This document shows, one piece after another, positions 49,557 to 64,000 of a stretch of 64,000 bases of DNA. This stretch comes from Escherichia coli (GTDB taxonomy: Bacteria > Pseudomonadota > Gammaproteobacteria > Enterobacterales > Enterobacteriaceae). Position 1 is the first letter of the stretch; every line of letters begins with the position of its first letter. The notes under the pieces are model-generated. The model saw only the letters and a program-made list of their open reading frames with translations, was not told the DNA's origin and made no database searches. The position numbers and the translations under genes were made by a program. The stretch lies in NCBI RefSeq assembly GCF_003334335.1, contig NZ_QOWQ01000007.1; one strand, written 5' to 3'.

Positions 49557-50963
49557 TTACTTGGAATTACTGTTGTTTTCGAACTGCTGCGTTAAGTAGC
49601 TGCTGGTGCTGTTTAACGAGGTCATTAAAACGTCCAGTTGGGTAAATTGTTCTTTGTAGCGCGCGACCTGCGCATCAATGCGATCGCTGGCGGCGTTGTA
49701 GTCTTTAGTTAACTTATTCAGGGTTTTACTAACGCCATCGGTAGCGGCTTTAATAATGCCCGTTGTCGAAAGCCAACTGGTCAGGTTGCTGCCGATGGTG
49801 GTTGTGATGCCGGTTTTTTTACCATCGCCAACAATCAATGCACCTACGCCGCTGGCATCTTTTTTCAGTGCAGCGGTGAGTTTGTCGGCATCCAGTTCCA
49901 GTTTGCCATCGCTGGGATCGGTCGTGATACCAATCTGTGCCAGCGTTTTATAGTTGGAAGAACTGACGGTATTACTCAGCATCGATTTCAACTGCGTCTG
50001 AATCGTCCGCAGCGTGGAGTCGCCGAGCAGTGCGCCATTGCTAGAACTCTGGCTATCAGCTCCCGCATCTACGGCGGTGTATTTGGTCAGGCTGCTGAAG
50101 GTATCTATTAGCGAGTTATAGGCATTCACCCAGTCTTTAATCGCTGTTTGCGCTTTGGAGGTGTCCTGAGTGATGGTTAGCGTCTGGTTGCCCGTGGTGA
50201 CATCGTTCAGGTTCAGGGTGATGTTTTCCAGCGCGTCGCTGATGGTGTTGCTGCTGTTCTCGATGGCGACGTTGTTGACCGTCAGCTGCGCATTTTGGGC
50301 GGCGACCGAAACCTCCATGCCGTTGCTGCTGGCACTGGCGTCATAGCCCATAAAACTTTGTAGCGCATCATCACCACTGACCGAGAGCGTCATCGCATTA
50401 TCATGGCCGGTGTCATTAGATGTGACTGACAGACGATATTCACCGTTACCCACGTTAATGATGCTTGCGCTTACGCCTGCTTTTGCGTTGTTGATAGCAT
50501 CACGGATCCCGCTTAATGACGAGTTAGCTGCGCTGATATCAATGGTAATCGGATCTTTGTCGCCGCCTTGTTGAATGGTGAGTTTACTGTCGCTGGTGGC
50601 AATCGCCGTTTTCGTATCGTCTCTGGTGGTGCGTGTGGTCAGGGTTTGCGCCTGCGCCAGATGGGTGACGCTGATGGTGTATTTCCCGGCGATGGCGTTA
50701 CCCGCAGTGGTGGCACTGAACGCGGTGGTGCTGCTGGTGGTGCTGGTGGCGGAAAAAAGATCGGTTTTAGACAATGCAGTATTGGCGGTCTGGAAAGTCG
50801 TCAGCGCGCTTTTCAGCGTACCGTAGGCGCTAAGTTTAGCGGTAAACGACGATTGCTGATTTGAAATAGGGGTTAGCGTCGCTTTTTGCGCGGCGGTGAG
50901 GCTATCGAGGATTGAACTTAAATCCAGACCTGACCCGACTCCCAGCGATGAAATACTTGCCAT
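49557..50963 (-). CDS. fliD: flagellar filament cap protein FliD
   Basis: 468-aa ORF. Confidence 0.95.
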   Translation of the reverse strand: MASISSLGVGSGLDLSSILDSLTAAQKATLTPISNQQSSFTAKLSAYGTLKSALTTFQTANTALSKTDLFSATSTTSSTTAFSATTAGNAIAGKYTISVTHLAQAQTLTTRTTRDDTKTAIATSDSKLTIQQGGDKDPITIDISAANSSLSGIRDAINNAKAGVSASIINVGNGEYRLSVTSNDTGHDNAMTLSVSGDDALQSFMGYDASASSNGMEVSVAAQNAQLTVNNVAIENSSNTISDALENITLNLNDVTTGNQTLTITQDTSKAQTAIKDWVNAYNSLIDTFSSLTKYTAVDAGADSQSSSNGALLGDSTLRTIQTQLKSMLSNTVSSSNYKTLAQIGITTDPSDGKLELDADKLTAALKKDASGVGALIVGDGKKTGITTTIGSNLTSWLSTTGIIKAATDGVSKTLNKLTKDYNAASDRIDAQVARYKEQFTQLDVLMTSLNSTSSYLTQQFENNSNSK

Positions 50964-51125: not shown

Positions 51126-51152
51126 TAAAGGTTGTTTTACGACAGACGATAA
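51126..51152 (+). promoter_or_regulatory. sigma-28 (FliA) promoter of fliC
   Basis: TAAAGGTT-N11-GACGATAA about 75 nt upstream of fliC ATG. Confidence 0.8.
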
Positions 51153-51228: not shown

Positions 51229-52875
51229 ATGGCACAAGTCATTAATACCAACAGCCTCTCGCTGATCACTCAAAATAATATCAACAAGAACCAGTCTGCG
51301 CTGTCGAGTTCTATCGAGCGTCTGTCTTCTGGCTTGCGTATTAACAGCGCGAAGGATGACGCAGCGGGTCAGGCGATTGCTAACCGTTTTACTTCTAACA
51401 TTAAAGGCCTGACTCAGGCTGCACGTAACGCCAACGACGGTATTTCTGTTGCGCAGACCACCGAAGGCGCGCTGTCCGAAATCAACAACAACTTACAGCG
51501 TATTCGTGAACTGACGGTTCAGGCGACGACCGGAACTAACTCCACCTCTGACCTGGACTCCATTCAGGACGAAATCAAATCCCGTCTCGATGAAATTGAC
51601 CGCGTATCCGGCCAGACCCAGTTCAACGGCGTGAACGTACTGTCTAAAGATGGCTCGATGAAAATTCAGGTCGGCGCGAACGATGGCGAAACAATTACTA
51701 TTGATCTGAAGAAAATTGACTCTGATACGCTGGGGCTGAATGGGTTTAATGTGAACGGCAAGGGGGAAACGGCTAATACGGCAGCAACCCTGAAAGATAT
51801 GTCTGGATTCACAGCTGCGGCGGCACCAGGGGGAACTGTTGGTGTAACTCAATATACTGACAAATCGGCTGTAGCAAGTAGCGTAGATATTCTAAATGCT
51901 GTTGCTGGCACAGATGGAAATAAAGTTACAACTAGCGCCGATGTTGGTTTTGGTACACCAGCCGCTGCTGTAACCTATACCTACAATAAAGACACTAATT
52001 CATATTCCGCCGCTTCTGATGATATTTCCAGCGCTAACCTGGCTGCTTTCCTCAATCCTCAGGCCGGAGATACGACTAAAGCTACAGTTACAATTGGTGG
52101 CAAAGATCAAGATGTAAACATCGATAAATCCGGTAATTTAACTGCTGCTGATGATGGCGCAGTACTTTATATGGATGCTACCGGTAACTTAACTAAAAAT
52201 AATGCTGCTGGTGATACACAAGCTACTTTGGCTAAACTTGCTACTGCTACTGGTGCTAAAGCCGCGACCATCCAAACTGATAAAGGAACATTCACCAGTG
52301 ACGGTACAGCGTTTGATGGTACATCAATGTCCATTGATGCCAATACATTTGCAAATGCAGTAAAAAATGACACTTATACTGCCACTGTAGGTGCTAAGAC
52401 TTATAGCGTAACAACTGGTTCTGCTGCTGCAGACACCGCTTATATGAGCAATGGGGTTCTCAGTGATACTCCGCCAACTTACTATGCACAAGCTGATGGA
52501 AGTATCACAACTACTGAGGATGCGGCTGCCGGTAAACTGGTCTACAAAGGTTCCGATGGTAAGTTAACAACGGATACGACTAGCAAAGCAGAATCAACAT
52601 CAGATCCGCTGGCAGCTCTTGACGACGCTATCAGCCAGATCGACAAATTCCGCTCCTCCCTCGGTGCCGTTCAAAACCGTCTGGATTCTGCGGTGACCAA
52701 CCTGAACAACACCACTACCAACCTGTCTGAAGCGCAGTCCCGTATTCAGGACGCCGACTATGCGACCGAAGTGTCCAACATGTCGAAAGCGCAGATCATT
52801 CAGCAGGCCGGTAACTCCGTGCTGGCAAAAGCCAACCAGGTACCGCAGCAGGTTCTGTCTCTGCTGCAGGGTTAA
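51229..52875 (+). CDS. fliC: flagellin (filament protein; H antigen)
   Basis: 548-aa ORF with N-terminus [54 protein letters not shown] and C-terminus ...[12 protein letters not shown]; variable Thr/Ala/Gly-rich centre. Confidence 0.95.
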
Positions 52876-52917
52876 TCGTCGTAAACTGATTAACTGAGAC
52901 TGACGGCAACGCCAAAT

Positions 52918-53017
52918 TGCCTGATGCGCTGCGCTTATCAGGCCTACAAGGTGAACTGCAATTTATTGAATTTGCACATTTTTGTAGGCCAGATAAGGCG
53001 TTTACGCCGCATCCGGC
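52918..53017. repeat. BIME: two inverted REP elements in fliC 3' region
   Basis: gcctgatgcgctgcgcttatcaggcctac and gtaggccagataaggcgtttacgccgcatccggc. Confidence 0.75.
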
Positions 53018-53049
53018 AACATAAAGCGCAATTTGTCAGCAACATGCTT

Positions 53050-53072
53050 CCCCGCCACCGGCGGGGTTTTTT
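53050..53072 (+). terminator. intrinsic terminator downstream of fliC
   Basis: ccccgcc-acc-ggcgggg hairpin followed by TTTTTT. Confidence 0.8.
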
Positions 53073-53133
53073 CTGTCCGCAATTTACCGGTAACCCCCAA
53101 ATAACCCCTCATTTCACCCACTAATCGTCCGAT

Positions 53134-53194: not shown

Positions 53195-53914
53195 GTGAAT
53201 TCACTCTATACCGCTGAAGGTGTAATGGATAAACACTCGCTGTGGCAGCGTTATGTCCCGCTGGTGCGTCACGAAGCATTGCGCCTGCAGGTTCGACTGC
53301 CCGCGAGCGTGGAACTTGACGATCTGCTACAGGCGGGCGGCATTGGGTTACTTAATGCCGTCGAACGCTATGACGCCCTACAAGGAACGGCATTTACAAC
53401 TTACGCAGTGCAGCGTATCCGTGGCGCTATGCTGGATGAACTTCGCAGCCGTGACTGGGTGCCGCGCAGCGTGCGACGTAACGCGCGTGAAGTGGCACAG
53501 GCAATAGGGCAACTGGAGCAGGAACTTGGCCGCAACGCCACGGAAACTGAGGTAGCGGAACGTTTAGGGATCAATATTGCCGATTATCGCCAAATGTTGC
53601 TCGACACCAATAACAGCCAGCTCTTCTCCTACGATGAGTGGCGCGAAGAGCACGGCGATAGCATCGAACTGGTTACTGATGATCATCAGCGAGAAAACCC
53701 GCTACAACAACTGCTGGACAGTAATCTGCGCCAGCGGGTGATGGAAGCCATCGAAACGTTGCCGGAGCGCGAAAAACTGGTATTAACCCTCTATTACCAG
53801 GAAGAGCTGAATCTCAAAGAGATTGGCGCGGTGCTGGAGGTCGGGGAATCGCGGGTCAGTCAGTTACACAGCCAGGCCATTAAACGGTTACGCACTAAAC
53901 TGGGTAAGTTATAA
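53195..53914 (+). CDS. fliA: flagellar sigma factor sigma-28
   Basis: 239-aa ORF with GTG start; MNSLYTAEGVMDKHSLWQRYV... Confidence 0.95.
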   Translation: MNSLYTAEGVMDKHSLWQRYVPLVRHEALRLQVRLPASVELDDLLQAGGIGLLNAVERYDALQGTAFTTYAVQRIRGAMLDELRSRDWVPRSVRRNAREVAQAIGQLEQELGRNATETEVAERLGINIADYRQMLLDTNNSQLFSYDEWREEHGDSIELVTDDHQRENPLQQLLDSNLRQRVMEAIETLPEREKLVLTLYYQEELNLKEIGAVLEVGESRVSQLHSQAIKRLRTKLGKL

Positions 53915-53959
53915 CGTCAGTAAATGCCGCACTTTAACTTTGACTACCAGGAGTTCTTA

Positions 53960-54511
53960 ATGATGGTGCAGCACCTGAAAAGACGGCCATTAAGCCGCTA
54001 TCTTAAAGACTTTAAACACAGCCAGACCCATTGCGCGCATTGCCGTAAATTACTCGATCGCATTACCTTAGTTCGCGACGGCAAAATAGTGAATAAAATC
54101 GAGATTTCCCGCCTGGACACGCTGCTTGATGAAAAGGGCTGGCAAACGGAACAAAAATCATGGGCGGCATTGTGCCGATTTTGCGGTGATTTACATTGCA
54201 AAACGCAGAGTGATTTTTTCGATATTATCGGCTTTAAGCAATTTCTTTTTGAGCAAACTGAAATGAGCCCAGGTACGGTGCGTGAATATGTCGTTCGTTT
54301 GCGCCGTTTGGGGAATCATCTACACGAGCAAAATATTTCCCTCGATCAGCTGCAGGACGGTTTCCTTGATGAAATCCTCGCCCCGTGGCTGCCCACCACC
54401 AGCACCAACAATTACCGCATCGCGTTACGGAAGTATCAACACTATCAGCGCCAAACCTGTACCGGACTTGTGCAGAAATCCTCCAGCCTGCCTGCTTCTG
54501 ATATATATTAA
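53960..54511 (+). CDS. fliZ: regulator FliZ
   Basis: ORF track 53924..54511; start trimmed to MMVQHLKRRPL (183 aa). Confidence 0.85.
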   Translation: MMVQHLKRRPLSRYLKDFKHSQTHCAHCRKLLDRITLVRDGKIVNKIEISRLDTLLDEKGWQTEQKSWAALCRFCGDLHCKTQSDFFDIIGFKQFLFEQTEMSPGTVREYVVRLRRLGNHLHEQNISLDQLQDGFLDEILAPWLPTTSTNNYRIALRKYQHYQRQTCTGLVQKSSSLPASDIY

Positions 54512-54598
54512 ATAAGAATAAGATGTAGCGGAGTTGTTTTTGTGTTTACAAACAATGGCTCTACACTGCAAACAGACATAACAACATTCGGGGTGAAT

Positions 54599-56490
<1,892 letters not shown>

Positions 56491-63082: not shown

Positions 63083-63169
63083 GCCCGGATGGTGGAATCG
63101 GTAGACACAAGGGATTTAAAATCCCTCGGCGTTCGCGCTGTGCGGGTTCAAGTCCCGCTCCGGGTACCA
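63083..63169 (+). tRNA. leuZ: tRNA-Leu (UAA)
   Basis: GCCCGGATGGTGGAATCGGTAGACACAAGGGATTTAAAATCCCTCGGCG...GGGTACCA, 87 nt with long variable arm. Confidence 0.95.
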
Positions 63170-63237: not shown

Positions 63238-64000
63238 TTCTTGTGTTTTTGTATGTGGCGGTAACGTGGCGATGGTATGGCGATATGTAGGAGCAAGAGT
63301 AAAGCAGGCTCAGTAGCAATTGCCTTTGCTGTCATAACTGCGCTTTTACTACTCTCGGTGTTATCCACAGTTTGTTGGTGTGGATTGCTTTCAATGATGC
63401 TGAAAAGAAAAGCCCGCAGTTTTTACGCTACGGGCTTTGTTTTTCTTTGTGACTTGCGTGTGAGGGTGCTACTTTCGGCCTTACCCTGGCAACCGATTGA
63501 CGGGGGATTGCTCCCCCGTCGCGGTTTCTTACGGTTTACACTGCAAGAACGCCGCAAATTCTGACCACATGATGTTAAGTCTGAACTCACACGGTGAACG
63601 GTGTATCATCCAGACGGTCAACAACATGGTTAAGCATAAAATGCTCACGATGATCGTTTTTTGCGGCATAGCGCTTGCTCCTTTTTCAAAGAGGCGCTAA
63701 CCTTCCACTTGTCACGGTTAGATGGTCAGGGCCTCGGGTTAAACAATATGTTTGACTCGGGGCCTTTCCACATCCGGCCTTCAGGTAATCCTTCCAGCCG
63801 TCAGCCGAAAGGCACCCGCGCGTAATGTACAGTTTTTGACTGGGAGGCGCAATCGCCCAGGGGGAGGCTGAGTTGATCCCTTCCCCGGTGGCATGATTTG
63901 AAAGCGTCTGCGGGGACGACTCCCATAAGCGCTAACTTAAGGGTTGTGGTATTACGCCTGATATGATTTAACGTGCCGATGAATTACTCTCACGATAACT

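Follow-up and report, generated by a model that had tools for sequence, protein, structure and literature searches.

The DNA analyzed here is a stretch of 64,000 nucleotides, one strand of Escherichia coli contig NZ_QOWQ01000007.1, which is referred to as the window. It contains an intact fliC gene, an H6 allele, which encodes a flagellin of 548 amino acids and is closed by a stop codon (Table 1). The gene is divergent from fliDST and is located upstream of fliAZ, and the order of genes is the same as in K-12 and in strain EC416. The reading frames called for fliZ, tcyJ, and dcyD exceed in length the genes annotated in these two strains because the program that lists open reading frames begins at the first possible start codon; no real difference is involved.

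The protein encoded by fliC is matched by Pfam Flagellin_N (PF00669; residues 5-140, E = 2.8e-46) at the N-terminal end and by Flagellin_C (PF00700; residues 462-546, E = 5.4e-32) at the C-terminal end. The enterobacterial 'FliC' family PF12445 covers residues 337-452, and the NCBIfam model NF005953, 'FliC/FljB family flagellin', gives 774.2 bits, which is above its cutoff of 619. Cys, Trp, and His are all absent from the whole protein, and its last residues are QQVLSLLQG. When the 64-kb window was searched by tBLASTN with FliC, only fliC was matched, and no second flagellin gene was found within it. An earlier note on this DNA had taken positions 51700-52620 to be the serotype-determining centre of a 548-aa flagellin. 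This range is in frame and comprises 921 nt, or residues 158-464, and the reading frame, the Pfam and NCBIfam matches, and the matches to H6 genomes described below all agree with that reading.

Table 1. Features of the fliC region and of the tRNA gene toward the end of the window (positions are those of the window)
Feature	Position	Strand	Basis or remark
fliD	49557-50963	-	upstream of fliC, with fliS and fliT on the same strand
Predicted sigma-28 (FliA) class-3 fliC promoter	51126-51152	+	TAAAGGTT, N11, GACGATAA; read from the sequence
fliC	51229-52875	+	intact open reading frame of 548 aa plus stop
Conserved N-terminal D0/D1	51229-51753	+	residues 1-175; 93-99% aa identity to nine other alleles
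Hypervariable outer domains D2-D4, predicted H6-antigen determinant	51754-52605	+	residues 176-459, roughly 285 aa
GNLTKNN, counterpart of the D4 dimer-interface motif	52183-52203	+	residues 319-325; full-length alignment to 7SN4 (H7)
(GCTACT)2, coding for Ala-Thr-Ala-Thr	52240-52251	+	residues 338-341; shortest state of a length-polymorphic H6 tract
Conserved C-terminal D1/D0	52606-52872	+	residues 460-548; Flagellin_C match, invariant from P460
fliC 3' UTR, equivalent of the K-12 FliX small-RNA region	52876-53076	+	K-12 ncRNA fliX is annotated directly 3' of fliC; near-identical alignment
REP-like element, Rfam ES036	52940-52981	-	above gathering score
Rfam naRNA4 match	52987-53027	+	below gathering score
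Intrinsic terminator	53050-53066 (stem), then T run	+	terminator scan
fliA	53195-53914	+	downstream of fliC
fliZ	53924-54511	+	ORF call, 588 nt; 552 nt annotated in K-12 and EC416
tcyJ	54542-55399	+	ORF call, 858 nt; 801 nt annotated in K-12 and EC416
dcyD	55408-56490	+	ORF call, 1083 nt; 987 nt annotated in K-12 and EC416
tRNA-Leu	63083-63169		

Putative expression signals are located on both sides of the gene. The sigma-28 consensus is TAAAGTTT-N11-GCCGATAA, and each of the two elements of the putative promoter agrees with it at 7 of 8 bases. Transcription of fliC would start from this sigma-28 promoter and end at the intrinsic terminator, past the FliX-like 3' UTR with its REP-like elements. 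In the H6 lineage of KY1497, NT1W25, and 2022N21-074-17, about 155 nt of the fliC 3' UTR are absent, the REP-like elements included, and the spacer between fliC and fliA is 163 nt as against 319 nt.

Toward the end of the window, six genomes are approximately 100% identical to it over positions 39001-63238, and the match ends at 63238. The sequence beyond this point (63239-64000) is found next to tRNA-Leu in other strains, where its counterpart is annotated as an ogr/Delta-like zinc-finger protein and a Hok/Gef family protein. These annotations suggest that positions 63239-64000 are the end of a P2-like prophage inserted beside tRNA-Leu.

The hypervariable part of the flagellin was delimited by comparison with nine other fliC alleles from complete genomes, which were aligned to the window protein. 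The set consists of the alleles of K-12 (H48), ATCC 25922, and an O89m:H9 strain, two other alleles of 670 aa, and alleles of 545, 554, 555, and 564 aa. Identity to the window protein, taken per block of 15 residues, is 94-100% up to residue 165, falls to 79% at residues 166-180 and to 21-53% over residues 181-450, and then rises through 60% (residues 451-465) and 86% (residues 466-480) to 97-100% from residue 481 onwards. The last invariant residue on the N side is V175, and an invariant run on the C side begins at P460. From these block identities, together with the invariant columns that end at V175 and resume at P460, the limits of the hypervariable region were placed at about residues 176-459. 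The conserved D0/D1 part that precedes it includes the segment at residues 89-98. The hypervariable region shares 12-61% aa identity with other H types; residues 453-548 are 90-95% identical to the other fliC alleles.

The earlier note divided the protein into parts of about 170, 300, and 100 residues. That division comes close to the limits found here, but the first 18 or so residues of its central range still belong to conserved D1. Its description of the centre as rich in Thr, Ala, and Gly is borne out by the composition of the range (Ala 17.3%, Thr 16.3%, Asp 10.1%, Gly 9.8%). The hypervariable centre has a lower GC content (45.1%) than the conserved parts on either side of it (49.3% and 55.6%). 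When the central 290 residues were compared with themselves by BLASTP, only the self-match was returned, and no internal domain duplication was found by this search.

The K-12 flagellin (H48; PDB 8CXM) is grouped, together with Salmonella FliC, among the known flagellins nearest to the window protein. Its length of 498 aa, as given in the earlier note, is confirmed by the MG1655 fliC gene (1497 nt, 498 aa). The gene has the same locus and regulation as that of the window, and the D0/D1 core of its product is 91-93% identical to the window protein; in the centre, however, the identity is only 12-14%, with many gaps.

A flagellin whose filament was solved by cryo-EM is available for comparison in the FliC of the enteropathogenic (EPEC) O127:H6 strain E2348/69 (PDB 7SN7 and 7SQJ; Kreutzberger et al. 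2022, PMC8931119). The window protein aligns end to end with the PDB chains 7SQJ (548 aa) and 7SN7. The two flagellins are colinear and of the same 548-aa length, 539 of 548 residues are identical, and the hypervariable region, the (Ala-Thr)2 tract, the D4 interface motif, and the locus are the same in both. They differ by nine substitutions (window to PDB): T100S, T106D, S139A, E154Q, T228A, G280R, A327G, L337V, and T365A, the last five of which fall, in the comparison with 7SQJ, within residues 176-459. The conserved 5' part of the E2348/69 gene is also of other nucleotide ancestry than that of the window.

In the EPEC O127:H6 filament, D0 and D1 form the canonical core, and the outer domains D2-D4 cover this core and lie on the surface (PMC8931119). 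D2 dimerises in two ways (Sn:Sn+11 and Sn:Sn+6) and D4 as Sn:Sn+22; the D2 and D4 contacts together produce a tetrameric outer-domain sheath that is broken by a seam (PMC8931119). Flagellins of H7, H6, and Achromobacter share a highly conserved D4 interface sequence, and N319 and N323 of H7 were mutated to disrupt the dimer interface; motility of the H7 N319F N323F mutant was drastically worse, and the sheath prolongs tumbling (PMC8931119). These two H7 positions were mapped onto the window protein via full-length alignment, because a PDB search with residues 258-390 alone did not reach H7. N320 and N324 of the window align with H7 N319 and N323, so that the D4-interface asparagines of sheath flagellins are present in the window protein. 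The D4 interface motif is also found in H18, H9-like, and other alleles.

The O157:H7 FliC (PDB 7SN4, 585 aa) resembles that of H6 in having three outer domains and a sheath (PMC8931119), and it has been placed in cluster #8 (PMC11532411). Its D4 interface asparagines are common to the window protein, with which it shares 57% overall identity (Foldseek). The sheath of H7, however, is dimeric and without a seam, in contrast to the H6 tetramer with a seam (PMC8931119, PMC11532411).

An AF2 model of the window protein was built on an alignment of 12 sequences. The outer domains in the model are mainly of beta structure with pLDDT values mostly of 75-92; D0/D1 have a mean pLDDT of 67. Foldseek with this model gave 7SN7_A as the best match (E = 1.5e-54, 98% identity), and 7SN4 was matched at E = 1.3e-36. 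The whole-chain TM-scores, which include a D0/D1 part of low confidence, are 0.38 (7SN7) and 0.28 (7SN4), and they are low because this core is poorly modelled. The fold search is consistent with the sequence identity and appears to add little beyond it.

In the window protein, the conserved D0/D1 ends would fold as a coiled-coil core, and the filament would arise through polymerisation of this core; that the protein polymerises is expected because it is 98% identical to a flagellin whose filament has been solved. The 285 or so central residues would fold into beta-rich D2-D4 domains that face the medium and bear the H6 epitopes used in serotyping. Pairing of D2 and of D4 would then produce a tetrameric sheath with a seam, as in the EPEC O127:H6 filament, and the sheath architecture of the window strain's filament is probably the same as that of E2348/69. 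In the related H7 flagellum, the sheath is reported to alter the filament waveform and tumbling (PMC8931119).

Outer domains of this kind may also act in adhesion. Flagella of the H6 type, once purified, bind to HeLa cells as well as to mucins, collagen, and laminin; moreover, inactivation of fliC(H6) lowers the adhesion of EPEC, and expression of FliC(H6) makes a laboratory strain adhesive (reviewed in PMC4009794). Such reports would favor the idea that the H6 outer domains have been selected mainly for adhesion to mucins, extracellular matrix, and epithelial cells and not for the tuning of motility, an idea that is complementary to the assignment of the gene to H6 and does not exclude it. 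The data come from EPEC O127:H6, however, whereas the genomes closest to the window were obtained from pig and other faeces, vegetable, chicken, and human sources. Adhesion as the main selective force is possible but somewhat doubtful for this flagellin.

In E. coli, certain H antigens are encoded at the flk, fll, flm, and fln loci, in strains whose fliC is inactivated (PMC7018530). Since the window covers only 64 kb of the genome, the window strain might be non-motile or express another flagellin locus, and fliC would then be present but would not determine the phenotype, so that H6 would not be the expressed antigen. Several features of the locus make this improbable. The fliC gene is intact and carries its putative sigma-28 promoter and terminator, the fliD, fliS, fliT, fliA, and fliZ reading frames around it are also intact, and the only flagellin gene of the window is fliC itself. 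In EC416, whose fliC is 100% identical, neither the same flanking genes nor fliE-R are flagged as pseudogenes in the annotation. Expression of fliC in the window strain is probable, and a phenotype that fliC does not determine is considered quite unlikely.

The H6 antigen as such is defined by agglutination with H6 antiserum; the assignment made here depends on the occurrence of this sequence in public genomes. Genomes with the designations O150:H6, O2:H6, and O99:H6, as well as that of NC101, match the central 921 nt at 99.5% identity. The whole fliC gene is 100% identical at the nucleotide level in four complete genomes (1506, ECZP248, EC416, and GDSC2BY4G) and 99.9% identical in two further complete genomes, and 187 contigs in public databases encode exactly the FliC protein of the window. 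A domain-specific probe of 212 nt matches 234 of 5426 complete genomes, including O127:H6 E2348/69 and an O102:H6 strain. Among 1281 genomes that match the centre, the same number, 234, cover at least 80% of it, and the remainder cover no more than 11%; these other 1047 genomes share at most the first 100 or so nucleotides of the range, which are the end of conserved D1. Because genomes outside the 234 match the conserved edge only, the H6 central domain is a discrete form. The hypervariable regions of E. coli H antigens have been described as non-intergrading groups (PMC7018530).

The nearest other H type sampled is represented by a 554-aa allele (RIVM_C039205). An 801-nt probe from it matches a strain named O15:H18 at 100% identity, and on this ground the allele was identified as H18. 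This flagellin is similar in length to that of the window and shares the GNL(T/S)K(N/T)NAG motif, with an overall aa identity of 77%. Nevertheless, it belongs to a distinct hypervariable group, with 54-61% identity in the centre, no megablast match across the centre, and no Ala-Thr tract at the equivalent site. The centre of H18 is also variable in length, and the 801-nt probe spans 794, 800, 806, or 807 nt in different genomes.

Other H6 alleles, namely FEX669 (O150:H6), the KY1497 point-sequence group, and M2021_10044824_1_E (O102:H6), have a hypervariable region that is 99.5% identical to that of the window at the nucleotide level except for repeat number. The KY1497 group includes full-length matches of 98.8%, such as MS6198 and ECONIH1. 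From 20 to 42 point differences separate these alleles from the window, mostly in the conserved ends, and (GCTACT)n varies from 2 to 15. Canonical H6 alleles differ from the window at 40-42 nt. In the comparison with one of them, FEX669 (42 nt and 7 aa differences), 29 of the 42 are located in nt 135-468 of the gene (51363-51696), within the conserved N-terminal part; the 921-nt centre contains 5, accounting for three of the seven aa differences, and the 3' conserved part contains 8.

Judged from the sequence, the window allele is a mosaic, with its differences clustered in the conserved 5' part. Of the sampled alleles, those of 670 aa in MRSN346647 and F8704-2 come nearest to the 5' segment, with 6 differences over nt 135-470. 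A K-12-like source of the segment was rejected, as 41 differences were counted in the first 470 nt. H types are known to be exchanged by recombination whose breakpoints lie within the conserved ends (PMC7018530), a pattern which the apparent mosaic fits.

That the central domain might be a new or intermediate H antigen and not H6, a serotype of its own set apart by its substitutions and by a length unlike that of K-12, may be proposed from the distance to the canonical alleles and from the seven and nine aa that separate it from FEX669 and the E2348/69 structure sequence, but this is highly improbable, since few of these differences fall in the centre, all 234 genomes with the hypervariable region form one discrete group that the others touch at the conserved edge only, probe identities below about 98% within the 234 track extra repeat copies, and even H18 is far removed in the centre. 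The range is best regarded as the part of a chromosomally encoded FliC that comprises the hypervariable outer domains, in an E. coli strain whose flagellar antigen is H6, and a probability of about 95% is given to this reading. The centre is what the earlier note took it to be, a surface-exposed H antigen by which the strain can be typed: the type is H6 by sequence, and D2-D4 are on the filament surface in the solved structure (PMC8931119).

Variation of another kind was found within H6 itself. An in-frame (GCTACT)n tract encodes (Ala-Thr)n in H6 fliC, and the alleles that were fetched have n = 2, 3, 4, 5, and 10. Of the 234 H6 genomes, 60 were sampled at even spacing, and n was derived from the span of the probe match; two copies were the most common state (29 of 60), followed by three (15), four (9), and five (5); n = 6 and n = 15 were each seen in one genome. 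Alleles with no point differences outside the tract nevertheless differ in n, with 3, 4, and 5 copies on one background and 2 versus 10 on another. Since n varies among alleles that are otherwise without differences, the copy number of the repeat changes faster than point substitutions accumulate. By the same comparison, the two backgrounds have undergone independent changes in this number, which is what strand slippage would be expected to produce. Tandem Repeats Finder reported nothing in the fliC gene, because a 6-nt unit present only twice does not reach its threshold, and the polymorphism is visible only by comparison of alleles.

The tract is located where a short helix predicted by the AF2 model (residues 334-339) ends, 14 residues past the D4 dimer-interface asparagine. 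Its site corresponds to a 5-residue gap in H7 and is a hotspot of insertions and deletions across H types. A literature search for H6 fliC or an in-frame 6-bp fliC repeat found no description, which is not proof that the repeat is undescribed. It may be speculated, with a small chance of being correct, that (Ala-Thr)n is a slippage-prone site of the contingency type whose length could alter the surface of the outermost domain, and thereby tune H6 antigenicity, packing of the sheath, or motility.

As the earlier note had anticipated, novelty is lost once a reference H type is matched exactly, and this applies here: the H6 fliC finding is already known in its exact sequence, its serotype, and its atomic structure. 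No new biology follows from it, and functional literature already exists for the H6 outer-domain sheath and for adhesion. The H6 call provides the flagellar half of the serotype of the strain and is of use in typing and epidemiology. The Ala-Thr length polymorphism is the only element that is perhaps worth more work; it could serve as a sub-typing marker or affect the sheath, and, if the speculation above is true, variation of the contingency type would be layered upon the H type.
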